A DNA stretch of 64,000 nucleotides from Shigella phage SSP1. Both the position numbers and the translations under genes were made by a program. The first letter of the stretch is position 1. Every line of letters begins with the position of its first letter. The stretch is taken from the sequence record KY963424. The stretch is one strand, 5' to 3'. Positions 13,473-28,615 of the stretch are shown in pieces. The notes beneath the pieces were generated by a model, which ran no database searches, was not told where the DNA came from, and worked only from the letters and a program-made list of their open reading frames with translations.

Positions 13473-13504
13473 AAGTTCATAAATTAATGAGAGAGGAAAT
13501 TCTA

Positions 13505-15056: not shown

Positions 15057-15514
15057 CAGCACTACAACAACTACAGAATTACTGGTTTGATAACCAATTT
15101 AACGATCTCTTCATCCAGTTGTTTGTCGAAACGAACGGACGCTTCAACTACCGATTCTTTAATAAGTTTCACGAAACAAAATTCTCGCATACAGAAATTA
15201 ATGCAGCGATCCAAGACCTAACTGGTTCTAAAGTAGTTCAATATCGTGAAGTAGACTTTACACCAGATTGTTTTGGGTTTGAATTGTTTAAGAAAGCATA
15301 TAAATTTGGTAAGTTTGAGGATGCTCGTCAATGGGTTCATGATTTCTGGTACAACACTGATATTGTTCCTAGTCGTGTGCTGATTCTTAACTGGATTGCT
15401 AAGCAACATCCACCTAAAGCTCAATCGTCCTTCTTACCAACTGACACAGGAAACCTCTACCATGACAGAAAAGAAAAATCCATTGCTGGAGCAGATGAAG
15501 GAATGGGAGAGTAA
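15053..15514 (+). CDS. hypothetical protein
   Basis: 153-aa ORF overlapping previous stop. Confidence 0.5.
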   Translation: MTALQQLQNYWFDNQFNDLFIQLFVETNGRFNYRFFNKFHETKFSHTEINAAIQDLTGSKVVQYREVDFTPDCFGFELFKKAYKFGKFEDARQWVHDFWYNTDIVPSRVLILNWIAKQHPPKAQSSFLPTDTGNLYHDRKEKSIAGADEGMGE

Positions 15515-15833
15515 TATTGAATCTGGTCTAGTAGATGGAGAAGATATTGTTAACTCTATGTTAGAAGTAACAATAGATAATATTGATCCCATCTTAGCTA
15601 GTGAAACCTCAGATCTTATAGGACTTTCTATTGCATTCGATTCTTTGGCTAAATTAGCTTTAGATGATGAAGAGATAACCAAAGAAGATCTCGCCTCAGC
15701 TATGAATATGGCTATTAACGCTTACATTGGCAAACGTACCGATGAACTCGACAAACAAATCAAAAAGCGTGATACAACGTTAAATCTTATGGAAACGGCC
15801 ACTATGTTAAGAAGTGGTAAGCAACTTCATTAA
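15462..15833 (+). CDS. hypothetical acidic protein (start ambiguous: 15396, 15462 or 15495)
   Basis: ORF overlaps the previous gene; several in-frame ATGs. Confidence 0.4.
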   Translation: MTEKKNPLLEQMKEWESNIESGLVDGEDIVNSMLEVTIDNIDPILASETSDLIGLSIAFDSLAKLALDDEEITKEDLASAMNMAINAYIGKRTDELDKQIKKRDTTLNLMETATMLRSGKQLH

Positions 15834-15840
15834 TTTTAGA

Positions 15841-15868
15841 GGCCAGGACTTAATTGTTCTGGCCTTTT
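15841..15868 (+). terminator. putative intrinsic terminator
   Basis: GGCCAG...CTGGCC stem followed by TTTT. Confidence 0.6.
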
Positions 15869-15887
15869 GTGTTTCAAGGAATATAAT

Positions 15888-16085
15888 ATGAAAGCACTAG
15901 ATAATTACTTAAAGGCTAAATATAGCCCTACAGAAGATCAATCTGCTGTAACTTGTGAAATAAGTCGAAATAATACAGTACGATTGGCTCAAAAAGGCGG
16001 AGGAACATCTGCCAGTATTATTTGGCTATCAGAAGAACAAGCAAAAGACTTGTACCATAAACTAGACAAGTTATTTAACAAGTAG
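15888..16085 (+). CDS. hypothetical protein
   Basis: ATG with AGGA RBS; track ORF uses upstream TTG. Confidence 0.45.
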   Translation: MKALDNYLKAKYSPTEDQSAVTCEISRNNTVRLAQKGGGTSASIIWLSEEQAKDLYHKLDKLFNK

Positions 16086-16086
16086 T

Positions 16087-16533
16087 ATGAGAGAAAAAGT
16101 AAATGAATTATTAATCGAGGAAGCTAACAACTTCCCAATAAATAGGTTTATCAAATCGGATGGGTCTATTAATAGAACTAAGATTAAGCAGTTACATCCC
16201 GACTTTCAACAAGAAGCACTAAACCTTATATTTATCAAGAAAGCTGTTGCAGTTCATGGAGCTTTCTTTGGGTATGAGCGTGTAAATTACAAAACAATGC
16301 AACAACAAGTCGAGATCTACTGTCCAGATCATGAAGGATATTACTGGCAAACTGCTAGATCTCATTTAGAAGGGCATGGTTGTCGACTGTGTGCACACAA
16401 GGTTGTACAGCGTGTCACGGATTATGGAACTTATACCGTGCCAGCATGTTATCATAAATTTGTAATTGACGATAATCATATAGTTTGGTATAATAAGTTT
16501 TCAAAGCTAAGAATGGAGATAAATAGTGAGTAG
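16087..16533 (+). CDS. hypothetical protein with Cys/His cluster
   Basis: CPDHEGYYW...HLEGHGCRLCAHK suggests a metal-binding site. Confidence 0.5.
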   Translation: MREKVNELLIEEANNFPINRFIKSDGSINRTKIKQLHPDFQQEALNLIFIKKAVAVHGAFFGYERVNYKTMQQQVEIYCPDHEGYYWQTARSHLEGHGCRLCAHKVVQRVTDYGTYTVPACYHKFVIDDNHIVWYNKFSKLRMEINSE

Positions 16534-16816
16534 CTATATTATATGGTCAAATCCATTAGCAGCACTTAGTAACAAACTATTTAAAACAACGTTGGGCTAT
16601 AATGAAATAGACTTAAGCAGTCGCCCCATACCAAATACATGCTCACTAGTCCCAGATCTGTATAAAGTAGTAATAAATAACGTAGAATATTTGGTTGACG
16701 AATTTGACAGAAGGTATATACTAGAGAGTATTTATGATGCCAGTATATCAATGAATGAATTGATAGAGCATGCCCAAATGTGTGATAAAAGTTGGATGTT
16801 AATATGGAAATCATAG
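16526..16816 (+). CDS. hypothetical protein
   Basis: ORF in coupled array. Confidence 0.45.
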   Translation: MSSYIIWSNPLAALSNKLFKTTLGYNEIDLSSRPIPNTCSLVPDLYKVVINNVEYLVDEFDRRYILESIYDASISMNELIEHAQMCDKSWMLIWKS

Positions 16817-17037
16817 CAATTATTTTAGTAGTTATGTTATTCATCGTAGTACTTGTATCTTTTGCTATTATGCGTAGAGCTAGAGAACTAGCAGAAGATC
16901 TAGTAAAATTACGTGGTGAGTTGGCTGCTCTTAAACTACAACGAGAGGCCTTAAAAGTATTTGTAGCTCAAGGTAGCGCAGCGCATACAGCAGAAGACTT
17001 CATCGTATCTCTCAAACGTTACATGGGAATCAAATAA
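16792..17037 (+). CDS. hypothetical membrane protein
   Basis: N-terminal TM segment IIAIILVVMLFIVVLVSFAIM. Confidence 0.45.
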   Translation: MDVNMEIIAIILVVMLFIVVLVSFAIMRRARELAEDLVKLRGELAALKLQREALKVFVAQGSAAHTAEDFIVSLKRYMGIK

Positions 17038-17222
17038 TGGAAACATTACTTCTTGTATTACTAGGAGGCTCACTCCTAATAATCCTGGGGCTGATACTGA
17101 TTTGCAGTCGCCTCAATACTAAGAATCTAGAGTTAACCTGTGAGAATGAAATTCTCAATAATGAACTCTTTCAATATAACATCGCAGCTCATAAACTGTT
17201 AGACAAACTGGAGGATATATAA
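17037..17222 (+). CDS. hypothetical small membrane protein
   Basis: N-terminal TM segment LLLVLLGGSLLIILGLILI. Confidence 0.45.
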   Translation: METLLLVLLGGSLLIILGLILICSRLNTKNLELTCENEILNNELFQYNIAAHKLLDKLEDI

Positions 17223-17836
17223 TGTTTACACAACAACCTATTCAAGTAGTACCGGATCATGAACTGAACACATGGGATTATAGCTTTAAAGATTTAACTG
17301 CTACTGTACAATTTAAATCTATGAAGCTAACATTTGCACATACGGATCTTAAAGCCTGTAAAGATCTTGAAGGTAAGCTCGAAGATGCTCGTAAGATTTT
17401 TGGCAAGGCTCGCATCCCAGCTGATAATCTAATTAACGCATTAATCGATGCAGGGTACAAACTTGTGAAGACTGAGGTGAACCGCCCTAGTACTCCAGTG
17501 ACTATTAGAGATCCGTGGCCGTCAGGGACAATCTCAATGCTGAATAACTCCGATAAAAGATTAATGTCGGATATGCACAATGTTCCTTGTGGGGGTGTGG
17601 TAAGTAGTACGCAGTCATATAAGTTTGGGGAAGATTACGGCCCTTCTGTACAGCTGAAACATACTCAAGAAGCTTTTGAATCTGATATGCGAAGCGTAGC
17701 ACCTGCGGATGCTGGAGTTTCTAGGAGTTCTGTTTATGCTATTCATTTTAATAATCCTAGTAAACATGGAAGTTTAGAGGATGCTATTATGGAGGCGTTG
17801 GGAGCCGCTATTAATGAAGATAAGAGAGGTAATTAA
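17222..17836 (+). CDS. hypothetical protein
   Basis: 204-aa ORF coupled to neighbours. Confidence 0.5.
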   Translation: MFTQQPIQVVPDHELNTWDYSFKDLTATVQFKSMKLTFAHTDLKACKDLEGKLEDARKIFGKARIPADNLINALIDAGYKLVKTEVNRPSTPVTIRDPWPSGTISMLNNSDKRLMSDMHNVPCGGVVSSTQSYKFGEDYGPSVQLKHTQEAFESDMRSVAPADAGVSRSSVYAIHFNNPSKHGSLEDAIMEALGAAINEDKRGN

Positions 17837-18177
17837 TGATATTTGGTAAAACAAAAATAGCCCCTGCTGGGGAAAATTTAATTACTCTTAGCCTTTACTA
17901 TAAAGACGAGGATTCTGAGGTAGAGACATTAGAATACGTGGTGGTAGTAAACAGTAAGGCTAAAGAGACAGAATTATTTAATACATTAATAGAGATATCA
18001 AACTGTGAATCTCTACCCCCATTGACCCCTAGAAATGTTGCCCATATGGTTAACCAGCTAGGAATGCTGTGGTATAAATTAGAACCTAGTAAAAGTAATA
18101 CTACAGGAACTTTTAAACCACGAAGAGAGAAAAAGACACAAGTTAGTGATACTAGTCAGCAGGCATGGGATATATGA
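17836..18177 (+). CDS. hypothetical protein
   Basis: ORF in coupled array. Confidence 0.45.
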   Translation: MIFGKTKIAPAGENLITLSLYYKDEDSEVETLEYVVVVNSKAKETELFNTLIEISNCESLPPLTPRNVAHMVNQLGMLWYKLEPSKSNTTGTFKPRREKKTQVSDTSQQAWDI

Positions 18178-18920
18178 TTGAAGAAGCTAATAAATTTAAG
18201 AATATACTCGCTTTAGCAGTAACAGCAGATCACAAATGTCTATCAGAGCTAGAGCCAGATGTCAAACATGCAGTAATGTTTGTTTGTGAGATGTTCCCTG
18301 CTAAATGGGAGGGCAAGAAGATTAAGTTTGATATTAATGCTCCTCAAGCAGATCTAGCGTATTCATACGTGGATATGAACAAAGTATTGAAGTCTTTAGA
18401 TCCAACTGCTAAAGGGCATAGAGCTAACTTTTTACATGTTATTATAGATGAACCTTTGCCAACATATCCAGAAGCAAACGTTCGTCAGGCACTAGAGGCC
18501 TATCCTGAACAACTTCTTATTCCGCCTAAGAAATGTAAGTATGACCATCTTCCCCCTCTAAAATATATGGAGAGTGTTTCTTTCGAGGATATTAATAAAA
18601 CAATTGGAGCTATGATAGCACGGATTGCAGTATCTCATACCCGTAAGATTCCATTAACGGATATTGAAGATAACATTCTTTATGCTATTCATGATGAAGA
18701 GAATACCTTTAGACGTCTTGCGGATGTTCTAGGATTAGGATCATTAACTGCGGCTGTGCTTAACTATGCTCCTAAAACAAATAAATACCCTAGAGGTACG
18801 TTAACCTATGAGGAATCTGGATCAGAATCTTCGTTTCTAGCAACATATATTTACCTAGCATCTAAAGGGGTATATCTCAAAGCCAAGAAGAATCCAAAAA
18901 CGTTAGCAAAATCTTCTTGA
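18165..18920 (+). CDS. hypothetical protein
   Basis: 251-aa ORF; last + strand early gene before the repeat region. Confidence 0.5.
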   Translation: MGYMIEEANKFKNILALAVTADHKCLSELEPDVKHAVMFVCEMFPAKWEGKKIKFDINAPQADLAYSYVDMNKVLKSLDPTAKGHRANFLHVIIDEPLPTYPEANVRQALEAYPEQLLIPPKKCKYDHLPPLKYMESVSFEDINKTIGAMIARIAVSHTRKIPLTDIEDNILYAIHDEENTFRRLADVLGLGSLTAAVLNYAPKTNKYPRGTLTYEESGSESSFLATYIYLASKGVYLKAKKNPKTLAKSS

Positions 18921-19261
18921 CGTTATTAAAAATGTATGTTATAATAATCTCATAGATTAACAATAACTCTTATTGTGAACTCTAGGGGCGATGATTATTA
19001 CAACTCTATTTGCGTCTGTGCTATAGCGGCTAGTCTTAGCGCGGGCCAATATTAGAGTTCTTCCGTAATACTCACGCGCCCCACGAGGAATCTCACATGA
19101 AATGGGGGATCATTTACTTTTAAAACATACGAATATATTTAAAGGCAATATTTGTATTCAAGATGATACACTTGTTGCCGCTCTCCATCTCTAGGATCAC
19201 ATACACTTTCCTAGAAACTCCAGAGTTCTCACGAGATATCACACTTCTAGTGGGCGGTTCT

Positions 19262-19333
19262 CCTAAGTTTCTAGGAACATATACTAGGCGGTTAATACAG
19301 GGCGGTTATGGGGAGGGCGGTTATTTCTAGACA
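19262..19333 (+). repeat. four direct copies of GGCGGTT(A/C)
   Basis: GGCGGTT at 19263, 19297, 19311, 19326. Confidence 0.7.
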
Positions 19334-19366
19334 ACATTTTTTGAAAACACATTTTCAGAAATTATT

Positions 19367-19972
19367 GTCGGATTTGCACACTGACATAAGTTTAAAAACT
19401 GGTCGGATTTGCACAATTGCCTAAGTTTTTAGGAACATATAATCTCCTGAAAATGCCAGCATTATTTCGGGCCGAAGGCCCATGGTTGCCTGAGTTTTTA
19501 GAGCCACAGAAATTTTCACTTGTCAAGCTATTTTGCCCCATTTAGCAAATAAAATTTTACTTTATCTCCACTAATCTCAAATTAACCCAAATCTTCTCAA
19601 CTCTTCCCCAAAATCCCCACAAATCAGGTGCTCCGCACCAAACATGCGCCCCTCTAGCTTCCCCCCCCCCCCTAATTTTCTCTCGCTCTCTCAACTTCTC
19701 CCCAAACCCACACAATCACACACCCTCTCATCGAAGTCACAAAAATATTCCTGAAACCATAAATCTGTCTCCTAGTAAACTCGTGTCGGATTTGCACATA
19801 CCCCACAGGATTCGAACGCAGTTCGAGATTGCTGGAGTTTTTGGGAAAATTCATTGTCGGATTTGCACACTATAAAAATTTTTCGGGTCGGATTTGCACA
19901 CTACCAAAAATTGTCGGATTCGCACATACACGCCCGCACGTAACACCCGTGGAGCAATGTCGGTTTTGCACA
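19367..19972 (+). repeat. dispersed array of seven copies of 14-mer GTCGGATTTGCACA
   Basis: Exact copies at 19367, 19402, 19785, 19856, 19887; one-mismatch copies at 19913 and 19959; same orientation. Confidence 0.85.
19661..19672 (+). repeat. C12 homopolymer within a G-depleted C/A/T-rich tract
   Basis: Twelve consecutive C; surrounding 19560-19780 has about 6 percent G on + strand. Confidence 0.85.
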
Positions 19973-20002
19973 AAAGCGCAGGGCAATTGCCCTGCGCTAA
20001 AT

Positions 20003-20160
20003 ACGAATGATAATAAGAATCATTCTCATTTAAAAAGCGGAATGAGAATGATAATAATTCGCATTTAGAAAGTGAAATGAGAATCAATCTCATTTAAAAA
20101 GTGGAATGATTCTCATTTAGATAGTGGAATGCAAATGATAATGATTCGCATTTAAGAACG
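20003..20160 (+). repeat. tandem array of degenerate AT-rich palindromic repeats (AATGAGAAT...ATTCTCATT / TGATAAT cores)
   Basis: About five tandem units each ending CATTTA(R)AAAG; extra copy at 20491-20512; resembles Fur-box-like GATAAT arrays. Confidence 0.6.
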
Positions 20161-20161
20161 G

Positions 20162-20295
20162 AAGTGAGAAACACTGTTATTTAAGTTATCCACAGACTTA
20201 TCAACAGCACGATTTGACTTGACAAAACCCTAGCCATTTTGAAGCGTTATTAACAGACTTATCCACAGCTTATCCTACTGTATAAATATACAGTA
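20162..20295 (+). repeat. left arm of about 135-bp imperfect inverted repeat carrying DnaA boxes
   Basis: Reverse complement of 23553-23686 aligns with few mismatches; TTATCCACA at 20186-20194 and 20259-20267, TTATCAACA at 20198-20206. Confidence 0.8.
20276..20295. promoter_or_regulatory. LexA (SOS) box-like palindrome TACTGTATAAATATACAGTA
   Basis: 19 of 20 matches to E. coli LexA consensus TACTGTATATATATACAGTA. Confidence 0.55.
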
Positions 20296-20550
20296 TTCCT
20301 ACGCAGTGAATAATTCTAATATAGCGTTAAAACGCTCTCAAACGCATTCTAACGCGTTTAATTTTGGTGGGGATACTAAATCAAGGGCAAAATTGAAGGA
20401 GGCTTGAAAATTAGTTAGCGCGCTAACGATCACACAAGGCGACACGTAACACCCGAATCATTAGCAGGCTAACCATCGCGGGCGCGGTCAAATGAGAATG
20501 ATTATCATTTGAAAATTGGGGCACTTCCAGATAGTTGCGCCCCGTGATTA

Positions 20551-20745
20551 TTAGTCTGGTAGTCGATGCGTGATCTTTTCCTCCTCCCCATATGAGTCCA
20601 CCAAATACTTATAATAACCATCGTGATCATAAATCACTTTATCATATTCGCCACGCTCAACCGCTTGTCGGTTTTCCGGCGTATCGGGCACGTAAAAAAC
20701 ATCAACCATTGTACTAGTTTTGGTTACAACAATTTTATTGCTCAT
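20551..20745 (-). CDS. hypothetical protein (cassette gene 8)
   Basis: 64-aa ORF, GC-richer composition, last gene of minus-strand cassette. Confidence 0.45.
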   Translation of the reverse strand: MSNKIVVTKTSTMVDVFYVPDTPENRQAVERGEYDKVIYDHDGYYKYLVDSYGEEEKITHRLPD

Positions 20746-20855
20746 AATAACTCCCTAGTAAATATATTTTTGCCAATAGTGGCGAACGTTATCGCCCCCA
20801 GCGGAATCATTAGCGGCCTTACTATTACCAACGAAAGTATATAATCTCATTAGTA

Positions 20856-21017
20856 TTATTTTCCTTGCATTAATTTATATATAACGAACATTCCGCAAAA
20901 CTGCCCTAATATAGTGCAGACAACAAGGGATAACACAATATTGCCGATTGTGTTATAAATAACCATACCAACAATAAGGGATAACGCATATCCTAGCAAA
21001 GCAATATAAACAGCCAT
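20856..21017 (-). CDS. small two-TM membrane protein (cassette)
   Basis: ATG one nt after upstream stop; hydrophobic MAVYIALLGYALSLIVGMVIY and LSLVVCTILGQFCGMFVIY. Confidence 0.45.
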   Translation of the reverse strand: MAVYIALLGYALSLIVGMVIYNTIGNIVLSLVVCTILGQFCGMFVIYKLMQGK

Positions 21018-21018
21018 A

Positions 21019-21363
21019 TTATTTACCCATTTTTCGAAACGCTGTTTCAATACTATCAGCCGTGGATTGAATATATGCTCCTTTCATTATCAGGCGCTCG
21101 GTGCACACCTTACGGAAAATATTAATAAAATCATCCTCATTTTCTGCAATTAATGCTTCACCCATAACCTGAACGTCGCAAGCTGCAAAGGTTAAAAATT
21201 GAAACGCTAGTTCACGGGCAACGACCGCATTGATTTTATAATGCGCCTTACCCTCATAAATATTAATAACGCCCTTATATGCTGGCGAAAGCTGGTTTAA
21301 ATAGCTTGCTAATAATGCCGGGCGGCAGTTAGCAACAAAACGATTTCCCTCATAAATAACCAT
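21019..21363 (-). CDS. hypothetical protein (cassette)
   Basis: 114-aa ORF with GGGAGG RBS supplied by upstream small ORF. Confidence 0.55.
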   Translation of the reverse strand: MVIYEGNRFVANCRPALLASYLNQLSPAYKGVINIYEGKAHYKINAVVARELAFQFLTFAACDVQVMGEALIAENEDDFINIFRKVCTERLIMKGAYIQSTADSIETAFRKMGK

Positions 21364-21364
21364 T

Positions 21365-21490
21365 TTATAACCTCCCGATCAGATAGCCCGATAATAACAT
21401 AAAGATCCCCAGCGAAAGAGGATCATTCTTAAATAAGGTGGCGATAAAACCGCCAGCCATTGCAAGGGCAATAACAATAACGCTTTTCAT
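21365..21490 (-). CDS. small hydrophobic peptide (41 aa, cassette)
   Basis: ATGA overlap with upstream stop; sequence MKSVIVIALAMAGGFIATLF...; below track cutoff. Confidence 0.4.
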   Translation of the reverse strand: MKSVIVIALAMAGGFIATLFKNDPLSLGIFMLLSGYLIGRL

Positions 21491-21699
21491 AGTACCCCAC
21501 GAAACGCAGCGTAAAAGGTGGCAAAGTGCCTAACCGTTTCAAGGATCACGTTGCCGCGCTTGTCGAATTTCTTTTCAGTAACACGAAAAGCGTTTTTGTT
21601 ACGTGCTACATATTCGATTTTACAATCTGGACGCTCGAATGTGTTAGCATCCACCAGCTTAAAACCTTTCGAACGTGCAAGAGAAACGTTACGAATCAT
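21487..21699 (-). CDS. hypothetical protein (cassette)
   Basis: 70-aa ORF translationally coupled to neighbours. Confidence 0.5.
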   Translation of the reverse strand: MIRNVSLARSKGFKLVDANTFERPDCKIEYVARNKNAFRVTEKKFDKRGNVILETVRHFATFYAAFRGVL

Positions 21700-21701
21700 T
21701 T

Positions 21702-21881
21702 TTATTCTCCTTTACTATTCATGCAGCCCAGCAGATAAGAAAATGCAGCGATACCCGCGCCAATAATAACCATTGGTTTTGTGACTACTAAACCGCAATA
21801 ATCTTGAATGCCGTAAGCGGTGGCGAAAAGGGTCAAAATAGCGCCCAAGATACCCGCCAGAATAGCTCGAAAAATAACCAT
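21702..21881 (-). CDS. small two-TM membrane peptide (59 aa, cassette)
   Basis: GGGGAG RBS; MVIFRAILAGILGAILTLFATAYG...MVIIGAGIAAFSYLLG; below track cutoff. Confidence 0.45.
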   Translation of the reverse strand: MVIFRAILAGILGAILTLFATAYGIQDYCGLVVTKPMVIIGAGIAAFSYLLGCMNSKGE

Positions 21882-21931
21882 TTTTTAATACTCCCCTAGT
21901 TAGTGGGGCGAAAGTAACGCCCCGTTATTAA

Positions 21932-22162
21932 TTACATTAAGATAATTTTTGCAGCTTGTTTTTTGGTGCAATGTTCCGCCTTCAGGGTATCCAGCAAAAA
22001 GCCCGCTGTTTGTTGATCGATTTGATCATTATCATAAAGCGTCTGGATGGTGTTATAAGTTTTAGCAATGCCGTATTCTTGGACCATTTCTTGAATAATC
22101 CAGCGATTTGATACCCAGCCTTTACCAGTGAAAAGAGCGTCAGAAGAAGAAAAAGCAACCAT
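21932..22162 (-). CDS. hypothetical protein (cassette)
   Basis: 76-aa ORF on cassette strand. Confidence 0.5.
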   Translation of the reverse strand: MVAFSSSDALFTGKGWVSNRWIIQEMVQEYGIAKTYNTIQTLYDNDQIDQQTAGFLLDTLKAEHCTKKQAAKIILM

Positions 22163-22277
22163 TTTAAGCCTCCAAATTTTTGGGAAAATTTTCGACCGTC
22201 CTCAAACGGTGTAAAGGCATTATAACAAAAAAGGCCACCATAAAAGGCGACCTTTACAAAACTTTACAATAGGCTAG

Positions 22278-23267
22278 TTATTGCTCGTTTTCGGTGTTAT
22301 TGGTAAAAGTAGAAATATCGATACCTTTTACCATTTCATCGATCATCTCAGCGATGTTAAAACTTTGGACCATTTCCAACATTGCCGCTTCCATAGCCGC
22401 CCCCGCTACCGCTTTCGCTTTCTGGTTACTCGGGGCGTACTGGTCAACCGCTACACTCAGCAGGTTAGCGATCACTACACGACCAACCGGCGTATCAATA
22501 TAGCCTTTGATCATGAACGGTGCTTTTTTAGCCGCTACTTTCGTGATTTGAGTTAGTGCAATTTTACCCGCTTCCAGTTTTGCAGCGTTTACAACGGCAG
22601 ACTTATTGGCGGCAACGATGTTAGCAATCTTGGTCATAGTGTTTTTTCCTTTATTTTCAGTAGTTTGAGTGTGAACGCTTTTAGTGTTAGAATTTACAGC
22701 ATGTTTTTCTATATTGCCAATACTTTCTTCCCTTTCGAAAGAAAATCCGGCGTCAACAATATCGCCGTCATATACCCGATTATATAACTCCGACGGTAGC
22801 AAAAAATTACCGTTATCATCAAAGGCCATTATAGCCGCAAAACGATACCCATCAGAATCCGACCGATTCCAGCCAACTGATAAATAACGCCAAAATGAAT
22901 CAAGAAAATTTTCTACGTCATAAAGATCATTATCATTGGCCTCATAGTTTTCTATTGAAAAAACTTCTAAGCCCGCCCCAGTATCATAGGCTTTTACTGT
23001 GTTGCCTTTTACGATTATGAAATCAGTATCCGGCCCCCGACTAGTGAGTAATTGATAATCCTGATTATACAAAACAAGCGTTGCCCCTTGCTTATATAAC
23101 GGTAGAAAACTATTCATATTATAAGCATCATAAGCATCAAAAAAGTTTTGATGAATAGTTTCAATATTGAAAACAAAATGTTTAATGCTGGTGGTCCTGC
23201 TACCATCCAGCAGGTTACGCAGCGCACCTTTTAAGACGGTTGCGTTATCTGGTTTATATAGCCTCAT
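22278..23267 (-). CDS. hypothetical 329-aa protein (first and largest cassette gene)
   Basis: Long ORF with RBS GAGGAGG; N-terminal Asp/Tyr-rich domain and Ala/Lys-rich helical C-terminal half; no motif I recognise. Confidence 0.6.
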   Translation of the reverse strand: MRLYKPDNATVLKGALRNLLDGSRTTSIKHFVFNIETIHQNFFDAYDAYNMNSFLPLYKQGATLVLYNQDYQLLTSRGPDTDFIIVKGNTVKAYDTGAGLEVFSIENYEANDNDLYDVENFLDSFWRYLSVGWNRSDSDGYRFAAIMAFDDNGNFLLPSELYNRVYDGDIVDAGFSFEREESIGNIEKHAVNSNTKSVHTQTTENKGKNTMTKIANIVAANKSAVVNAAKLEAGKIALTQITKVAAKKAPFMIKGYIDTPVGRVVIANLLSVAVDQYAPSNQKAKAVAGAAMEAAMLEMVQSFNIAEMIDEMVKGIDISTFTNNTENEQ

Positions 23268-23552
23268 TTGTTGGCCTCCTCGTTAATCGGTGAGTGAATG
23301 ATAAGGGTAATTTTCTAGTATAGGCAAAGATTATTTTACTTTTTTATTTTCCTTGCCTAGTGCCTAATTTTATGCTAACCGCGCAGCGGTGTAATAAAGA
23401 GCAAAACACGGCGAAGCCACCAGGGCGCCGCATTGCCGCCACCTGGCCAACGTGTTGGGCCTTTACTTTAATATTACCCCGCAGCGTTTAGCTCGTTAGA
23501 AAGCGTTTTAGGCGGCCTAAAATTGATTGCAGTCGTTAACACTGCCTTTCTA

Positions 23553-23572
23553 CCCTGTATATTTATACAGTA
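23553..23572. promoter_or_regulatory. LexA box-like palindrome (CTGTATATTTATACAG core)
   Basis: CTGT-N8-ACAG with AT spacer, 17 of 20 to LexA consensus; inverted copy of the site at 20276-20295. Confidence 0.5.
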
Positions 23573-23686
23573 GGATAACCTGTGGATAACTCTGTGTAAA
23601 AGTCCCCATATCGCCGCCTATTGTGTCAAATTATTTTGTGCTGTGGATAACGTTGTGGATAACTTAAATGATAGTGGTTCTCACTT
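23553..23686 (+). repeat. right arm of inverted repeat carrying DnaA boxes
   Basis: TGTGGATAA at 23581-23589, 23642-23650, 23654-23662; reverse complement matches 20162-20295. Confidence 0.8.
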
Positions 23687-23696
23687 ATGCCGATAG

Positions 23697-23765
23697 TTTC
23701 TTATAGTTATTATTATAATGGTGATGATTACATATAGCTATTATTATAGTGGTGATGATTTCATA
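23697..23765 (+). repeat. AT-rich direct repeats (two copies of about 31 bp)
   Basis: AGTTATTATTATAATGGTGATGATTACATAT and AGCTATTATTATAGTGGTGATGATTTCATAT in tandem inside a 350-bp AT-rich non-coding stretch. Confidence 0.75.
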
Positions 23766-24045
23766 TAGTTATTATTTCTCATTAATTTATAAGTATATTA
23801 TATATCATGAAATAGTTAGTTGGCTAATGAGATTTTCCGTGATTAATAGTCTGCTAATAGTTCAGGCCGTTACAATCCACCAGCATGATTATCATCCTAG
23901 CAATTATTAGTCTGCTATCTTTCCGATGCATACTAACAAATAAAAGTCAATTAATTAATTTTATAAAATAAGTCATTTGATCTTGATTTTTAAAAGTCAA
24001 GACCTTTTCCAACTATTTTTCAATTTTGCGTTTGTTAATGATTTG

Positions 24046-24285
24046 TTAAGTCGAAAATAGGCGGCCTAAAACGCCCCAGAACGCAATAAAGTTTTTAGCC
24101 ATCCCATCATAAGGGGATATGCCGTTTATCGCTGCCACGAGGTTTTTGGATTTTGTCAAGTAGGGCAGGGCAAATATAAATGAAAAAATTACTTGCCTAT
24201 TTGCTTTGTTTTGTGGTATTCGCGCGCCCGTTTCTTTTAATTTTGGGCCGTCGCCGGACGTGGTGCGGAAAACTGTATTAGCCAT
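24046..24285 (-). CDS. hypothetical protein (doubtful)
   Basis: 79-aa minus-strand ORF without clear RBS or promoter. Confidence 0.25.
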   Translation of the reverse strand: MANTVFRTTSGDGPKLKETGARIPQNKANRQVIFSFIFALPYLTKSKNLVAAINGISPYDGMAKNFIAFWGVLGRLFST

Positions 24286-24286
24286 A

Positions 24287-24314
24287 TTGCTAATAATTTT
24301 GATATAATATAATA
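24287..24314 (+). promoter_or_regulatory. sigma70 promoter (TTGCTA-N16-TATAAT)
   Basis: -35 24287-24292, -10 24309-24314, upstream of HNH gene with AGGAG RBS. Confidence 0.5.
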
Positions 24315-24342
24315 ACCAAATGAAACTAATAGGAGAATACTA

Positions 24343-24684
24343 ATGATTGAACTAACAAAAGATATTGATTTAGAAACCGTACTAGATAACCTTTACTATG
24401 ATGAAACTAGTCCTAGTTGCCTACGGTGGAAAGTATCCCGCCCCGGTTGCGCCCTTCATGGGGTAGCAGGTACTAAACGGAAGGATGGCTATTGGTCTGT
24501 TCAACTAAATAAAGAGCGTTATCTTGCGCATCGTATTGTGTGGTTACTATTTAATTATAAAATAGATAGCAAACTAGTAATTGATCATATTGATCGTAAT
24601 CCTAGTAACAATTTTATTGATAACTTACGGTTAGTAACTCAAGCCGAAAACAACCAAAATAAAGGAGAGTATAGAAAGGCGTAA
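24343..24684 (+). CDS. HNH homing endonuclease
   Basis: LAHRIVWLLF...IDHIDRNPSNNFIDNLRLVTQAENN HNH_3 motif; AT-rich relative to neighbours. Confidence 0.75.
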   Translation: MIELTKDIDLETVLDNLYYDETSPSCLRWKVSRPGCALHGVAGTKRKDGYWSVQLNKERYLAHRIVWLLFNYKIDSKLVIDHIDRNPSNNFIDNLRLVTQAENNQNKGEYRKA

Positions 24685-24804
24685 AATTTACATTTCTTTA
24701 CAAATATAAGGTTGCGCCTTTTTCGTTATTTGTTATTATTTATCTCGTAGGGCGGCAATGACGAACTACACGGCGGGAAGTTTACCGCCGCGCTCTTTAA
24801 AAAT

Positions 24805-24828
24805 TGGGTATATCTTAAAGCCTATCGG
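24805..24828 (+). repeat. left copy of 24-bp inverted repeat TGGGTATATCTTAAAGCCTA(T/C)CGG
   Basis: Reverse complement of 25075-25098 with one mismatch. Confidence 0.8.
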
Positions 24829-24862
24829 CGGTAAACTTATTACATTATAAGGAATCGACGAT

Positions 24863-25066
24863 ATGAAACAAACTTTATTGATCACTGGTAAACCTAGCAA
24901 GGCACTGGATAGCAAAACAAAAAATTTATTGACAGTAGCGCAAAGATCGGTAAAATATCGATTTGAGCAGTACAAGAAAGGCCGCCAGCAAGGTTTAGAA
25001 ATGATCTGGCGAAATATTATGATCGACCTGAAGGAAAATCATAAAAAACTGCAAAAAATAGTTTGA
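24863..25066 (+). CDS. hypothetical basic 67-aa protein flanked by inverted repeats
   Basis: ORF with AAGGAA RBS lying between the two 24-bp repeat copies. Confidence 0.45.
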   Translation: MKQTLLITGKPSKALDSKTKNLLTVAQRSVKYRFEQYKKGRQQGLEMIWRNIMIDLKENHKKLQKIV

Positions 25067-25074
25067 CAACATAG

Positions 25075-25098
25075 CCGGTAGGCTTTAAGATATACCCA
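25075..25098 (-). repeat. right copy of 24-bp inverted repeat
   Basis: CCGGTAGGCTTTAAGATATACCCA is reverse complement of left copy. Confidence 0.8.
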
Positions 25099-25296
25099 GT
25101 TCGATAAGAGCGATAACTTGATACAATTTGACGGTCGGTACTTACCATAATGTGCCCCGCCCCCTAACTGGGATATAGCGGCCCGCGTGGAGTTCCTTAA
25201 ATTGATTTTATAATGGCGAGCGGATTTTTTCTTATTACCTGTTATTTTCCAGCAGGTAATGCGGAACAATCCCCTAAATAACTTGGAGTTTATACC

Positions 25297-25548
25297 ATGA
25301 AAAACGTTATTACCGCGCCTAAAATTGGTCAATCTGTTTTCATCCCTTTCGTTACTAAAACGGATGAATTAACCGGAAAAGCCGAACGTATTAAAGGCGC
25401 GGCGCTCATGCCGTTCGATACAATCGATGCGGTATACGCTGAAACAGAACGCAGTAACAACGGCAAGCCGATTTATAACGTTCGCGTTAAATCTGGCGAC
25501 GTTGTAAAGGTTGTTCAACGCAACGAAAAATGGGAAGCCGTTTTATAA
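25297..25548 (+). CDS. hypothetical pre-early protein
   Basis: ORF preceded by conserved leader CCCCTAAATAACTTGGAGTTTATACC. Confidence 0.55.
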   Translation: MKNVITAPKIGQSVFIPFVTKTDELTGKAERIKGAALMPFDTIDAVYAETERSNNGKPIYNVRVKSGDVVKVVQRNEKWEAVL

Positions 25549-25562
25549 TTTAGTGTTAACTT

Positions 25563-25590
25563 TATATGCCCCAGTAGTTCGGGGCATATA
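25563..25590 (+). other. GC-cored hairpin without U-tract (pre-early intergenic punctuation)
   Basis: 10-bp stem TATATGCCCC/GGGGCATATA with 8-nt loop. Confidence 0.6.
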
Positions 25591-25646
25591 ACGATTAACA
25601 TTATGTTAATCTTATCCCTTAAATTAAATTAATTGGAGTTTATATC

Positions 25647-26054
25647 ATGACTAACGTTAAAGCCGCAAAATTCACCTGGAACGAAGAAAACACCCAAAAA
25701 GCTGTTACCATGTATCAGCAGTTAATCAATGAAAACGGATTAGAATTCGCAAACAGCGACGGCCTGAAAGAGATTGCGAAAGCAGTGGGCGCGACTTCTC
25801 CCGTGTCAGTTCGTTCGAAATTGACCAGCGCGAAAGCCTATCAAAAAAGCGATAAGCCTCGCAAGGTTGGCGGCGGTAGCTCAATCCGCAAGGCTCATTA
25901 TGTGCGAGTAATTGCAAGACACGCCATCGATTCCGGCATTATCAAAGACGCCGATGATCTGGCAAGCCTTGAAAGCGCGAAGCTGGAAACGCTGGACGCC
26001 GTGGCGCAGTTGTTAGGCGTTGCCGATGAGGTGAAACAAGCCGCAGGCGAATAA
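25647..26054 (+). CDS. hypothetical pre-early protein
   Basis: ORF preceded by leader CCTTAAATTAAATTAATTGGAGTTTATATC. Confidence 0.55.
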   Translation: MTNVKAAKFTWNEENTQKAVTMYQQLINENGLEFANSDGLKEIAKAVGATSPVSVRSKLTSAKAYQKSDKPRKVGGGSSIRKAHYVRVIARHAIDSGIIKDADDLASLESAKLETLDAVAQLLGVADEVKQAAGE

Positions 26055-26062
26055 ATTTAATT

Positions 26063-26088
26063 AGTGGGGATTATTCCCCACTATTTTC
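26063..26088 (+). terminator. hairpin / possible terminator
   Basis: Stem AGTGGGGA/TCCCCACT loop TTAT followed by ATTTTCC. Confidence 0.5.
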
Positions 26089-26109
26089 CCCTTGATTGGA
26101 GTTTTTAAA

Positions 26110-26307
26110 ATGATCTTTTACCCCACTGAATCGCTCATTCTAGGCTTATTTATTATGGCGGCCTCGTTATTGTTCGCATATTTTCAAAATGATTTAGATT
26201 CGTATTATTTTAAACGCAAATCTAAGTTAGCGAAGCGTTTGGGCCTGATTTGTTTTATTGCCGCCGTTGCTTGTGGTGTTAGTTCTAGCCTGATGCCGAT
26301 TAGTTAA
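26110..26307 (+). CDS. small two-TM membrane protein (pre-early)
   Basis: ATG after TTGGAGTTTTTAAA leader; hydrophobic LILGLFIMAASLLFAYF and LGLICFIAAVACGV. Confidence 0.5.
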   Translation: MIFYPTESLILGLFIMAASLLFAYFQNDLDSYYFKRKSKLAKRLGLICFIAAVACGVSSSLMPIS

Positions 26308-26319
26308 ATATTGCAAATT

Positions 26320-26345
26320 ATAACGCCTATTATTGGAGGCGTTAT
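26320..26345 (+). other. intergenic hairpin
   Basis: Stem ATAACGCCT/AGGCGTTAT. Confidence 0.55.
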
Positions 26346-26347
26346 AT

Positions 26348-26364
26348 TTGGCAATATTTGCCAA
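26348..26364. promoter_or_regulatory. 17-bp palindrome TTGGCAA-TAT-TTGCCAA (operator-like)
   Basis: Perfect 7-bp half-sites, located about 40 bp upstream of A1 start. Confidence 0.4.
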
Positions 26365-26404
26365 TAACAAACGTTTTTTAATCCCTTTAATGGAGTTTAT
26401 TATT

Positions 26405-28075
26405 ATGATTATTTCCGCAGAAAAACAAACCGTTATCCTGAAGCTGGCCGCTGACTTTAATTTCTATGGTAAACGTCTGCGCGCCACTAAATTGGAAGTA
26501 TGTGACGATATTTCGAAAGCGGTATACGATACACCGAAACACTCTACCGCGATTTGTGATTGGCTGGAAGCAAATAAACCAGCGAAACCGAAAACGGCAA
26601 AAGTAGCAAAAGCTATTAAAAACGACGAGCGCCCCGAGGCGGCTGGAATTATTTCTAGCACGGTGGAACAGTGGGAAGTAAAGCAGGGCAAACGCTTTAT
26701 TATTACATCGATTCAGAATAATACTTTCCCGCATAAAAACTTTTTGGCCTCACTGGAACAATACGCTAAATTTATCGGCGCTGATTTACTTGTTTCTAAG
26801 TATATTTATAACAAAAACGGCTTTCAAAATGGTGAAGGCGCGGACGGTGTAAAATATGATTCCGCGTTTGATAAGTATATTTGCAGCAAAAACGTGTTTT
26901 TAAATAACCGCCGTTTTGCTTTCATGGCTGAAATTAATGTTCTGCCCACTGCAGACTATCCGCTGTCTGGATTCGCAGAAACTGCAACGGCTCTCAATCT
27001 TGAAGGTCTGGCAATTGGTCACGCTAAAATCACCGCCGAAAGCGTGCCAGCTCTCAAAGGTGAAGTAGTACGCCGCATGTACTCAACCGGAACGGCAACA
27101 CTCAAAAACTACATTCAGCAGAAAGCAGGACAGAAAGCGGAAGCACTGCATAATTTCGGTGCGCTGATTGTTGAGTTCGACGAAGACGGTGAGTTTTTTG
27201 TGCGCCAGCTTGAAACGATGGACGAAAGCGGCATGTTTTACGATTTGAATATTTGCGCGACCCCCGCCGGATGTTATGAAACATCGGGGCATGTTTTAGG
27301 TTTACAATATGGCGACATACACGCCGAAAAACTTGATGAGGAGTGCGCCGCAGCGTCATGGGGTCATGGTGATACTTATGGGCTAGTGGATATTCTTAAA
27401 CCTAAATATCAGTTTGTGCATGACGTTCACGATTTTACATCACGCAACCATCACAACCGCGCTTCAGGTGTATTTCTAGCGAAACAGTATGCAGCCGGAC
27501 GTGACAAGGTTCTGGATGATCTCATCGACACCGGGCGCGTGCTGGAATCAATGGAACGTGATTTTAGTCAAACGATCATTGTCGAATCTAATCACGATCT
27601 GGCGCTATCCCGTTGGCTTGATGATCGCAATGCTAACATTAAAGACGATCCAGCCAACGCGGAACTGTATCACCGCCTTAATGCTGCGATTTACGCGGCA
27701 ATCGGTAATCATGACGATACTTTCAACGTGCTGGATTATGCGCTGCGTACGGTTGCAGGTTGCGAGTTTAACGCGATTTTCCTGACAACTGACCAATCGT
27801 TTAAAATCGCAGGCATTGAATGCGGCGTACACGGTCACAACGGCATTAACGGGAGCCGTGGCAATCCGAAGCAATTCAAGAAATTGGGCAAGTTAAACAC
27901 GGGGCACACCCACACCGCCAGCATTTACGGCGGCGTTTATACCGCTGGCGTCGCTGGTTCCCTCGATATGGGCTATAACGTTGGCGCGTCAAGCTGGACG
28001 CAAACGCATTTAATTACCTATGCAAACGGCCAGCGCACTTTGATTGACTTTAAAAACGGCAAATTTTTCGCATAA
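26405..28075 (+). CDS. A1: A1 pre-early protein (metallophosphatase-fold, host DNA degradation/takeover)
   Basis: 556 aa from ATG 26405 as recalled for T5 A1; phosphoesterase motifs GDIHAE and GHGD; conserved pre-early leader. Confidence 0.75.
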   Translation: MIISAEKQTVILKLAADFNFYGKRLRATKLEVCDDISKAVYDTPKHSTAICDWLEANKPAKPKTAKVAKAIKNDERPEAAGIISSTVEQWEVKQGKRFIITSIQNNTFPHKNFLASLEQYAKFIGADLLVSKYIYNKNGFQNGEGADGVKYDSAFDKYICSKNVFLNNRRFAFMAEINVLPTADYPLSGFAETATALNLEGLAIGHAKITAESVPALKGEVVRRMYSTGTATLKNYIQQKAGQKAEALHNFGALIVEFDEDGEFFVRQLETMDESGMFYDLNICATPAGCYETSGHVLGLQYGDIHAEKLDEECAAASWGHGDTYGLVDILKPKYQFVHDVHDFTSRNHHNRASGVFLAKQYAAGRDKVLDDLIDTGRVLESMERDFSQTIIVESNHDLALSRWLDDRNANIKDDPANAELYHRLNAAIYAAIGNHDDTFNVLDYALRTVAGCEFNAIFLTTDQSFKIAGIECGVHGHNGINGSRGNPKQFKKLGKLNTGHTHTASIYGGVYTAGVAGSLDMGYNVGASSWTQTHLITYANGQRTLIDFKNGKFFA

Positions 28076-28082
28076 TTAAATT

Positions 28083-28110
28083 TATAAGCGGGGTATATAC
28101 CCCGCTTATA
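28083..28110 (+). other. GC-cored hairpin without U-tract
   Basis: Stem TATAAGCGGGG/CCCCGCTTATA around TATATA loop. Confidence 0.6.
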
Positions 28111-28142
28111 TCCCTTATTAAATTAATTGGAGTTTTATAACT

Positions 28143-28535
28143 ATGAAAAAGCAAAATATCCCATTCGATCGCGCTCAATCTTCCATCGTTCTGGTTTATT
28201 CTAATGGTGAGCGGTATCACGTTGAGGCCGGTCACGTTGTTGATGATTTAATCGACTTTAATGACGCTTTACAGATTACTACTTTCGCCTATACGCAAGG
28301 CCGCGCAAGTAGTCACATCAAGGCCGCAGGCGTTTATGTTGATACGGTGAAGCAGGAAACGATTATCATCGACGCCGTAAAATCCGGTCTAGCCTTTGCA
28401 GTTGTCGCGCCTTGTCCAGCTTGCTTTGATGATCAGCTATCGAGCGCAAAGGTATATATCTGCGCGGGTGTTCGTTCTCATGTATCCGGCGAAGATATTA
28501 GTTTCATCGCTGATGCGTTGGCTTATGGTCTTTGA
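28143..28535 (+). CDS. A2: A2-like pre-early protein (assignment by position and size)
   Basis: 130-aa ORF between A1 and dmp with conserved leader TTAAATTAATTGGAGTTTTATAACT. Confidence 0.45.
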   Translation: MKKQNIPFDRAQSSIVLVYSNGERYHVEAGHVVDDLIDFNDALQITTFAYTQGRASSHIKAAGVYVDTVKQETIIIDAVKSGLAFAVVAPCPACFDDQLSSAKVYICAGVRSHVSGEDISFIADALAYGL

Positions 28536-28548
28536 TAGTTGATTTATT

Positions 28549-28575
28549 ATTGCCCGCTGATAAATAGCGGGCAAT
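28549..28575 (+). other. GC-cored hairpin without U-tract
   Basis: 10-bp stem ATTGCCCGCT/AGCGGGCAAT, loop GATAAAT. Confidence 0.6.
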
Positions 28576-28615
28576 GCTGGATAAACTAAATCCCTTTAAT
28601 GGAGAACGTAACAAA

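Follow-up and report, generated by a model that had tools for sequence, protein, structure and literature searches.

Two long arms in inverted orientation bracket a set of minus-strand genes at positions 20162-23686 of a 64,000-nucleotide stretch of Shigella phage SSP1 DNA (KY963424), the whole of which is called here the window. An initial annotation, made from the sequence alone, offered as a hypothesis either a host-takeover or anti-defence module or an invertible or mobile cassette. The locus raises the question of whether its arms are the ends of a segment that flips or moves, or sites with another role in the phage genome.

The region is part of the terminal-repeat DNA of a T5-like phage

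The window belongs to a Tequintavirus, and its positions 19500-24254 are 99.9% identical to the left terminal repeat of Salmonella phage SPC35, whereas the flanks of this SPC35-like block are only 93-97% identical to that phage. Among the 468 phage records that matched the query, 119 are collinear with it over at least 80% of its length. The same layout is annotated in the SPC35 and T5 records, and the order A1/A2, arm, 011 to 017, arm, DRD repeats is alike in 29 IMG/VR loci, T5 and SPC35. Comparison with T5, as suggested in the initial annotation, showed that both the arms and the ORFs align. The cassette and its flanking repeats have already been described and are ordinary for the T5-like family; the initial annotation had held that finding both in all T5-like genomes, with characterised functions, would count against it, and this is largely the case, since they occur across T5-like genomes and in the literature. 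Very probably, the region is the right-hand half of the terminal repeat, the first-step-transfer DNA, in its standard form for a T5-like phage (an SPC35-like Tequintavirus). Its minus-strand ORFs form the second pre-early operon, with an accessory role in host takeover, and the arms are the published inverted repeats, which would serve as cis-acting platforms for host DNA-binding proteins.

The genes and transcription signals between the arms are the following.

23273..23350, minus strand: operon promoter with an A-rich upstream region and TTGCCT-18-TATCAT, aligning near-identically with the promoter annotated at T5 6411-6489 (scan match 23327-23298)
22278..23267, minus strand: 329-aa orthologue of T5.011 (DUF7566; 75% identity; PF24450, E 6e-112)
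22230..22255, minus strand: terminator-like hairpin after the 011 orthologue, with a T5 terminator annotated at the same place
21932..22162, minus strand: 76-aa orthologue of T5.012 (93% identity)
21702..21881, minus strand: 59-aa orthologue of T5.013 (93% identity; two TM-like segments by hydropathy)
21487..21699, minus strand: 70-aa orthologue of T5.014 (94% identity)
21365..21490, minus strand: 41-aa hydrophobic peptide (SPC35_0013), without T5 counterpart and present in some relatives only
21019..21363, minus strand: 114-aa orthologue of T5.015, Ung-dependent abasic-site nickase (89% identity over 114/114 aa)
20856..21017, minus strand: 53-aa (ATG) or 64-aa (TTG at 21050) two-TM peptide, without T5 counterpart
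20551..20745, minus strand: 64-aa orthologue of T5.017 (87.5% identity)

All eight minus-strand ORFs listed initially (329, 76, 59, 70, 41, 114, 53 and 64 aa) were found, transcribed opposite to A1 and dmp as stated, and likewise to A2. The three small hydrophobic peptides correspond to the 59-, 41- and 53-aa products, with GRAVY values of 1.26-1.56 and one to two TM-like segments. The tight coupling that had been described applies to 013-014-41aa-015-53aa only, the 329-aa gene being followed by a 115-nt gap that carries the terminator-like hairpin. The claimed GC enrichment is marginal, at 0.399 compared to 0.373 (1-19500) and 0.391 (29474-64000), and the cassette lies below the A1-dmp block (0.422). 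Downstream of the aligned promoter, the orthologues of 011, 012, 013, 014, 015 and 017 share 75-94% identity with their T5 counterparts, as members of the T5 pre-early operon 011-017; within the 329-aa protein the N-terminal domain is variable and the helical C-terminal domain highly conserved.

Studies of T5 have established that 011, 013 and 015 are toxic: T5.011 disturbs the nucleoid, expression of T5.013 in E. coli gives lysed-looking cells, for which its authors suggest a membrane effect, and T5.015 nicks abasic sites generated by Ung (Mahata 2021). With homology over its full length, the 114-aa protein is the orthologue of this Ung-dependent nickase, Ung binding and nicking being known only for T5.015 itself. 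The databases disagree on this name: NCBI and PHROG call the 70-aa protein "endonuclease nicking abasic sites", UniRef names the 114-aa protein AP endonuclease, and the "15ATG" cloning primer of Annor 2026 encodes the N-terminus of the 114-aa protein. Because the primers of Annor 2026 and the UniRef name point to the 114-aa protein, the "Ung nickase" label on the 70-aa T5.014 orthologue is probably misplaced. The host-takeover module proposed initially holds up only because its genes are orthologues of these already-studied T5 pre-early genes, which had gone unrecognised. No known defence-system model in PADLOC matched any of the eight cassette ORFs.

The arms are diverged repeats that evolve independently

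The arms and the adjoining non-coding DNA comprise three features.

20162..20293, no strand assigned: injection-stop-side arm, orthologue of T5 IRD'-spacer-IRC' (Repeat Region 3)
23555..23686, no strand assigned: promoter-side arm, orthologue of T5 IRC-spacer-IRD (Repeat Region 2), between the divergent pre-early operons
19400..20161, no strand assigned: non-coding repeat field outside the stop-side arm, equivalent to the T5 iss region, with TGTCGGATTTGCACA repeats at 19400-19975 and Fur-box-like repeats at 19982-20160

The positions are those of the T5-type terminal-repeat inverted repeats, one copy lying between the divergent pre-early operons and the other starting the non-coding iss region, with flanking genes and repeats as in T5 and SPC35; the T5 record labels the stretch orthologous to 19400..20161 as injection stop signal. 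In the best gapped local alignment of the two arms, in inverted orientation, 108 of 137 columns match (79%), with ungapped pieces of 66 nt at 80% and 56 nt at 84%. The alignment score of 118 compares to maxima of 32 in 300 shuffles and of 29 among 273 other real segments of the window. The inverted repeat that had been described (arms of about 135 bp, 20162-20295 and 23553-23686) is real, but at this identity the arms are not the near-perfect reverse complements that were claimed.

The stop-side arm is 93.9% identical to T5 NC_005859 9411-9542 (132 nt) and 88.6-97.7% identical to the 29 IMG/VR loci; for the promoter-side arm the values are 83.3% with T5 6098-6228 (132 nt) and 82.4-96.2% with the IMG/VR loci. 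Each arm is 82-98% conserved across genomes and arm-to-arm identity is steady at 73-82% (29 IMG/VR loci, T5 and SPC35). The arms evolve independently and are not homogenised. Within the arms, conservation falls on the columns of the DnaA boxes, of a TTGAC motif and of a palindrome. These 131-bp repeats, their eight DnaA boxes in pairs spaced by 3 nt and their conservation in 25 phages were reported by Davison 2020, according to whom the T5 repeats were first analysed in 1987 and the IR nomenclature comes from Wang et al.

The operon has a fixed orientation within the genus

The geometry, an inverted repeat around a segment, is that expected if the arms were crossover sites and inversion of the cassette switched its expression. 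The 011-015(-017) operon of Sugarlandvirus and Myunavirus is indeed inverted between unchanged arms, which points to an ancient inversion between distant genera. By contrast, the orientation is identical in 45/45 T5-type loci, and the opposite one is confined to loci with an A1 of 65-75% identity; orientation tracks deep clades only, and close relatives do not show both. No recombinase or transposase was found among the eight cassette ORFs and no recombinase family among the seven neighbouring terminal-repeat ORFs, and the arms, which evolve independently, share only 79% identity. A programmed, site-specific invertible segment is very improbable.

A transposon-like or moron element with terminal inverted repeats would account for the variable gene content between the arms (1.75-4.1 kb) and for the closer match to SPC35 inside the block than in its flanks, but we give it hardly any credence. 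It would have to lack a transposase; the arm ends show no target-site duplication, the flanks AAGAACGG and ATGCCGAT being different; no match to the cassette was found among 72,556 plasmids; and the arm motif, instead of appearing in unrelated contexts, occurs in T5-like genomes only, always at the same two positions. With no such enzyme, arms at 79%, a single orientation in all 45 loci and no plasmid match, the invertible or mobile cassette of the initial annotation was not retained as a present-day mechanism.

The arms might also serve mainly as homology anchors through which co-infecting T5-like phages exchange or invert a variable accessory operon, by analogy with the conserved boundaries around hyperplastic regions in other phages. 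This is consistent with conserved arms around highly variable content, with a cassette closer to SPC35 than its flanks are and with an ancient inversion that falls between the arms. However, conservation is focused on protein-binding motifs rather than spread evenly, and the SPC35-like block has one of its breakpoints at an HNH insertion 570 bp past the arm, and not within the arm. We regard this explanation as rather improbable.

Each arm carries paired DnaA boxes

The perfect DnaA box TTATCCACA occurs six times in the 64 kb, and five of these copies lie inside the arms (20186 and 20259; 23581, 23642 and 23654 on the reverse strand), in agreement with the 2-3 per arm counted initially. A further box, TTTTACACA at 23593-23601 (reverse strand), and the variants TTATCAACA (20198) and TTATTAACA (20247) bring the total to eight. 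They form four pairs (20186/20198, 20247/20259, 23581/23593 and 23642/23654), each with a 3-nt gap and with pair starts 61 nt apart in both arms, which is the T5-type arrangement.

20186..20206, plus strand: DnaA box pair, TTATCCACA-GAC-TTATCAACA
20247..20278, plus strand: DnaA-box array, TTATTAACA-GAC-TTATCCACA-GC-TTATCCTAC, two boxes and a degenerate third overlapping the palindrome
23570..23601, minus strand: DnaA-box array, TTTTACACA-GAG-TTATCCACA-GG-TTATCCTAC
23642..23662, minus strand: DnaA box pair, TTATCCACA-ACG-TTATCCACA

The array is kept in both arms across genera, and by its match to the sequence consensus it is a predicted DnaA-binding cluster. Clustered boxes in the same orientation resemble oriC, but a secondary DnaA-dependent replication origin is most unlikely, as the origins of T5 lie close to the centre of its genome, no replication genes are present during first-step transfer and the element is duplicated and inverted around a transcribed operon.

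In Davison's model, the two arms jointly act as the stop signal for injection: membrane-associated DnaA binds the eight boxes, and the first-step DNA stays tethered until its release by A1/A2. In favour of it, the annotated iss region does include the stop-side arm, which lies about 150 bp to the inner side of the estimated shear point; the boxes keep a strictly conserved arrangement; and a second FST band had been reported, in 1979, close to where the promoter-side arm lies. On the other hand, a T5 hegG-017 deletion is viable with only smaller plaques, and under laboratory conditions the operon can be dispensed with. From the mapped positions of its primers, this deletion spans T5 5394-9160, so that the mutant has lost the promoter-side arm (6098-6228) and kept the other (9411-9542). 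T5 can do without the promoter-side arm and therefore does not need the arms as a pair in order to infect. In addition, Type 4 phages carry one arm only, and the model leaves the conserved LexA-like palindrome unexplained. We consider it unlikely in this form.

A near-consensus LexA-like box is fused to the DnaA-box array

20276..20295, no strand assigned: LexA-box-like palindrome TACTGTATAAATATACAGTA, 19/20 to the E. coli consensus
23553..23572, no strand assigned: LexA-box-like palindrome, reverse complement TACTGTATAAATATACAGGG, 17/20, with CTGT-N8-ACAG intact

When the LexA consensus TACTGTATATATATACAGTA (PMC5101192) was searched with up to three mismatches, the window contained only two matches (one and three mismatches), both at arm ends, compared to 0.01 expected. 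Both palindromes have the features of a LexA operator (SOS box), namely CTGT-N8-ACAG, an AT-rich centre and likeness to the 20-nt consensus. Of 62 distinct arm contexts, 52 retain intact CTGT/ACAG half-sites, with variation concentrated in the central AT-rich octamer. The promoter-side box is overlapped only by a consensus-level promoter match, TTAACA-16-TATATT (23536-23563), which is absent in T5, and the number of promoter-like matches in the region (22, with 17.3 expected) does not stand out from chance.

The core, in which the LexA-like palindrome is fused to the DnaA-box array, is conserved in four genera of the Demerecviridae, three of which carry it as an inverted pair. It is present in Sugarlandvirus, Myunavirus and a Vibrio Pogseptimavirus, and in IMG/VR only on T5-like contigs of 96-123 kb; the 17 loci with two copies always carry them as an inverted pair, 1.75-4.1 kb apart. 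No mention of a LexA reading of the terminal palindrome was found in the accessible T5 literature, including Davison 2020.

The palindrome could instead be the operator of a dimeric DNA-binding protein encoded by the phage, such as A2, which is needed for second-step transfer, its likeness to an SOS box being coincidence or mimicry. A2, a dsDNA-binding dimer with no known site, is conserved in all T5-like phages, and the palindrome is kept wherever A2 is. This explanation is possible but doubtful: a 19/20 match to a 20-nt host consensus is a very specific coincidence, and the octamer varies while CTGT/ACAG is kept, as in LexA sites. A2 has no recognisable LexA-like domain, but it has no other recognisable domain either.

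As a tentative reading, we suggest that the arms may be composite host-factor modules, each joining a phased DnaA-box array to a near-consensus LexA operator and conserved across the four genera, so that both the host's replication initiator and its SOS repressor would bind the first-injected DNA; the same repeats may have mediated the ancient operon inversion. If this is true, the injection pause or pre-early expression could be coupled to the replication or DNA-damage state of the host.

Proposed mechanism

The strong T5-type promoter at about 23273-23350 would be used by host RNA polymerase for the second pre-early operon, whose transcription diverges from that of hdi-A2-A1-dmp. The arms would be cis-acting platforms for host DNA-binding proteins, and neither recombination sites of a switch nor ends of a mobile element. 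On each of them, two same-orientation DnaA-box pairs and a third, degenerate box fused to a putative LexA-type operator would be bound by DnaA, and probably also by LexA, once the DNA has entered the cell. The arm adjoining the injection-stop point may help the pause or the handling of the paused DNA, the promoter-side copy being presumably auxiliary, and the inverted repeats would have permitted at least one evolutionary inversion of the operon.

Comparison with known systems

With Hin/Gin/Cin-type invertible segments and shufflons, the locus shares a segment between inverted repeats; unlike them, it has no recombinase, its arms are long and divergent, and close relatives show no orientation polymorphism. 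The DnaA-box arrays of oriC, datA and DARS also comprise several 9-mers in the same orientation with an 11-12 bp periodicity, a format that supports DnaA oligomers, whereas the phage arms sit in first-injected DNA as an inverted pair. E. coli SOS boxes have the same CTGT-N8-ACAG and AT-rich centre, to whose consensus the arm boxes conform at 19/20 and 17/20; in contrast with the standard SOS promoter layout, the putative LexA box of the arms is fused to a DnaA-box array.

The T5.011-T5.017 operon has the order of 011, 012, 013, 014, 015 and 017, the promoter and the terminator after 011 in common with the cassette, but the window phage lacks T5.016, carries the additional hydrophobic 41-aa and 53/64-aa peptides and has a diverged 011 N-terminal domain. 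The closest likeness of the arms is direct orthology to T5 IRC-spacer-IRD and IRD'-spacer-IRC', which match them in position, in length (131-132 bp) and in the four pairs of DnaA or DnaA* boxes with 3 nt between the members of each pair; the window phage has six consensus and two variant boxes and T5 seven boxes in total, and otherwise nothing of substance differs between them.

The inverted repeats belong to the first-step-transfer DNA of T5-like phages

With 99.9% identity, 19500-24254 corresponds to the left terminal repeat of Salmonella phage SPC35, a Tequintavirus. Matches were obtained in 468 phage records, of which 119 align collinearly along 80% or more of the query. In the records of SPC35 and T5 this region is annotated as first-step-transfer DNA, the terminal-repeat DNA that is injected first. 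Over 14718-29471 the identity to SPC35 is mosaic, with 93-97% in the adjoining early genes and in the A1-dmp block. Relative to SPC35, a 432-bp insertion (24255-24686) carrying an HNH endonuclease gene (24343-24684, PF13392) lies to the right of the promoter-side arm, between this arm and the A2/A1 operon.

The stop-side arm (20162-20293) and the promoter-side arm (23555-23686) match at 108 of 137 columns (79%) in the best gapped alignment, and a repeat finder returned ungapped pieces of 66 nt at 80% and 56 nt at 84%. The alignment score of 118 far exceeds the maxima obtained with 300 shuffles (32) and with 273 other real segments of the window (29), so that the repeat is not due to chance; it is real, but not near-perfect as the initial annotation had described it. 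Five of the six perfect TTATCCACA sites of the 64-kb window fall within the arms. When relaxed and variant 9-mers are included, eight boxes are found in four pairs, with a 3-nt gap in each pair and the same 61-nt spacing between pairs in both arms. The promoter-side arm is immediately followed on its outer side by three tandem 31-bp repeats (ATGCCGATAGTTTCTTATAGTTATTATTATA and variants, 23687-23779). The only Rfam match was a sub-threshold one to rliI (24 bits; gathering score 45).

These arms have been named IRC-spacer-IRD (Repeat Region 2) and IRD'-spacer-IRC' (Repeat Region 3) by Davison (bioRxiv 10.1101/866236), who reported a length of 131 bp and, in 25 T5-like phages, eight boxes of the DnaA or DnaA* type paired at a spacing of 3 nt, dated their first observation to 1987, and proposed that they halt DNA injection through the binding of membrane-associated DnaA. 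A 2023 paper on BF23 points to the lack of experiments on these sites. The initial annotation had itself held that its proposal would be refuted if the same cassette and flanking repeats, with characterised functions, were present in all T5-like genomes, and this is largely the case. What it submitted is real but is a known, textbook-level T5 feature, and its re-discovery adds nothing by itself.

Several other repeated elements were observed beyond the stop-side arm. The DRD repeats of the T5 injection-stop region (iss), with the sequence TGTCGGATTTGCACA, are present in six or more copies at 19400-19975 and cross the inner terminal-repeat boundary (~19501). Between this boundary and the DRD repeats, 19640-19760 is non-coding, C-rich and strongly skewed, with a run of ~12 C. 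Fur-box-like repeats, agreeing with GATAATGATAATCATTATC at 15-16 of 19 positions, lie at 19982-20160 and ~20487-20512, the matches to the Fur consensus clustering at 20009-20160 and ~20494. Nine of the 20 matches of the window with at most 5 mismatches lie within 20000-21000, and a 2-mismatch site is found inside the dmp ORF (29222-29246). It is implausible that so few sites would titrate Fur, and these matches are kept as an observation only.

The cassette is a pre-early operon encoding small host-directed proteins

All eight minus-strand ORFs of the initial annotation are present at the sizes it gave, three of them encoding hydrophobic peptides. Their higher GC content is marginal: the cassette (0.399) exceeds the flanking modules (0.373 and 0.391) but not the A1-dmp block (0.422).

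ORFs of the cassette and their T5 orthologues
22278-23267, minus strand, 329 aa: T5.011 orthologue, 75% identity
minus strand, 76 aa: T5.012 orthologue, 93% identity
minus strand, 59 aa: T5.013 orthologue, 93% identity
21487-21699, minus strand, 70 aa: T5.014 orthologue, 94% identity
minus strand, 41 aa: no T5 orthologue
21019-21363, minus strand, 114 aa: T5.015 orthologue, 89% identity
minus strand, 53/64 aa: no T5 orthologue
20551-20745, minus strand, 64 aa: T5.017 orthologue, 87.5% identity

The promoter that the T5 record places upstream of T5.011 has an almost identical counterpart at 23273-23350, and a terminator-like hairpin lies 3' of the 011 orthologue, as in T5. A promoter and terminator scan of 19300-24400 gave promoter-like sites at chance level (22 versus 17.3 expected), and its matches were used only where the T5 annotation corroborates the site. 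According to the T5 literature, 011, 013 and 015 each have a toxic effect when expressed singly. The nucleoid becomes disorganised with 011; for 013, which gives lysed-looking cells, its authors suggested an effect on the membrane because of two predicted transmembrane segments; and 015 nicks abasic sites in an Ung-dependent manner. The 011 gene could be cloned only in recoded form (Annor 2026). The region is a pre-early operon with a strong promoter that encodes small host-directed proteins, and the conserved cis elements on either side of it consist of consensus sites for host factors.

Searches of the eight ORFs against Pfam, PHROG and PADLOC returned only DUF7566 and PHROG families of unknown function, with no defence models, and a PDB sequence search with the 329-aa, 114-aa and A2 proteins gave no match. 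AlphaFold2 modelled the 329-aa protein with a mean pLDDT of 43 from an alignment of 21 sequences that are 87-97% identical to the query. Among these 21 homologues residues 205-322 are almost wholly invariant, and they are ~70% identical even in Sugarlandvirus; the N-terminal domain is divergent. An internal AAAGGA followed by an ATG (Met211) could start a separate C-terminal product. In addition, a 31-aa minus-strand ORF (20755-20850) is 87% identical to a translated T5 stretch (8641-8733) whose frame is not the one annotated as T5.016; what is conserved here is either a small ORF or non-coding sequence.

In RefSeq and PHROG, the 70-aa T5.014 family carries the label "endonuclease nicking abasic sites generated by Ung", and UniRef names the 114-aa T5.015 family AP endonuclease. 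In Annor 2026, the "15ATG" cloning primer contains the codons for MVIYEGNRF, with which the 114-aa protein begins. From the UniRef name and this primer, the nickase is likely the T5.015 family and the label on the 70-aa protein a propagated mis-annotation, probably because another T5 record names this protein "ORF015". The probably misplaced label is spreading through RefSeq and PHROG annotations and needs correction.

The operon is not a present-day switch but was probably inverted in the past

The initial annotation had considered an invertible or mobile cassette. No recombinase or transposase match was found in the eight cassette ORFs or in seven neighbouring terminal-repeat ORFs, and a plasmid search gave no match. 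The order A1/A2, arm, 011 to 017, arm, DRD repeats is constant in 29 IMG/VR loci, T5 and SPC35. Moreover, each arm is 82-98% conserved between genomes whereas arm-to-arm identity is 73-82%, so that the arms show none of the homogenisation expected from frequent recombination. A degenerate 35-nt pattern of the arm core was confined, in IMG/VR, to T5-like contigs of 96-123 kb, and in the 17 two-copy loci the cores are always inverted and 1.75-4.1 kb apart. On these grounds a present-day switch or mobile element is rejected.

In Type 2 and 3 phages, the inter-arm region was described by Davison as "missing and replaced by ORFs read in the opposite direction". We found that these ORFs include homologues of 011 (E 1e-43) and 015 (E 4e-6, limited to the C-terminal part) and, for My1, of 017 (E 1e-19), which keep their internal order and read toward the promoter-side arm.

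Loci carrying the inverted operon
L033 (Klebsiella Sugarlandvirus), 7001-11000
L034 (Pectobacterium My1), 7850-11830
also comparison loci L037, L075 and L080

Among 51 loci, 011 is divergent from A1 in the 45 of T5 type and co-oriented with it in the six of Sugarland or My1 type, the arms being unchanged in both. This pattern is what inversion by recombination between inverted repeats would give, and we infer an ancient inversion, a modest and testable addition to the known feature. As a rival to a role in the injection pause, the arms may chiefly serve as recombination anchors through which the variable operon is exchanged.

A predicted LexA-type operator is fused to the DnaA array

Both arms end, on the cassette side, in CTGT-ATAAATAT-ACAG, a palindrome resembling the E. 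coli LexA consensus (PMC5101192).

LexA-box-like palindromes
20276-20295, stop-side: TACTGTATAAATATACAGTA, 19 of 20 matches to the consensus
23553-23572, promoter-side: 17 of 20 matches to the consensus

These two are the only matches of the window with at most 3 mismatches, for 0.01 expected. DnaA array and palindrome are joined in the arrangement TTATnnACA-3nt-TTATCCACA-GS-TTATCCTA-CTGT, a core that in Tequintavirus is better conserved than the rest of either arm; it survives in Sugarlandvirus, Myunavirus and a Vibrio Pogseptimavirus, that is, in four Demerecviridae genera in all. CTGT..ACAG is kept in 52 of 62 distinct arm contexts; most of the variation affects the central octamer, which also occurs with its strands flipped. 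Davison 2020 mentions neither LexA nor SOS, and no link between LexA or the palindrome and T5-like phages or Tequintavirus was found in the accessible literature, outside which lie the 1987, 2005 and 2015 papers and the Mahata 2021 supplement. The predicted LexA-type operator is a further modest, testable addition; alternatively, the palindrome may be an operator for the phage A2 protein.

An outward σ70-like promoter, TTAACA-16-TATATT (23536-23563), is conserved in most Tequintavirus flanks, with its -10 hexamer inside the promoter-side SOS box, and reads toward A2/A1 through the DnaA boxes; it is absent in T5 and two other loci and is not claimed here.

In a published T5 mutant, deletion of hegG to 017 leaves the phage viable but reduces its plaque size. 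The deletion primers, mapped here onto T5, delimit ~5394-9160, so that the promoter-side arm (6098-6228) and the whole operon are lost and the stop-side arm (9411-9542) is kept. The cassette and the promoter-side copy are thus dispensable in the laboratory, and the arm pair is not essential.

By homology with T5, DNA would enter from ~29473 down to ~20000 of the window. DnaA, and probably LexA, would occupy the arms after entry; the stop-side arm would take part in the pause or in the handling of the paused end, the promoter-side arm being auxiliary. How T5 DNA injection stops and restarts is a decades-old question. To our knowledge, a single sequence-based model of the injection stop is current, and DnaA alone is the host factor in it; a conserved, near-perfect predicted LexA operator fused to the DnaA array offers a second, easily testable host candidate.
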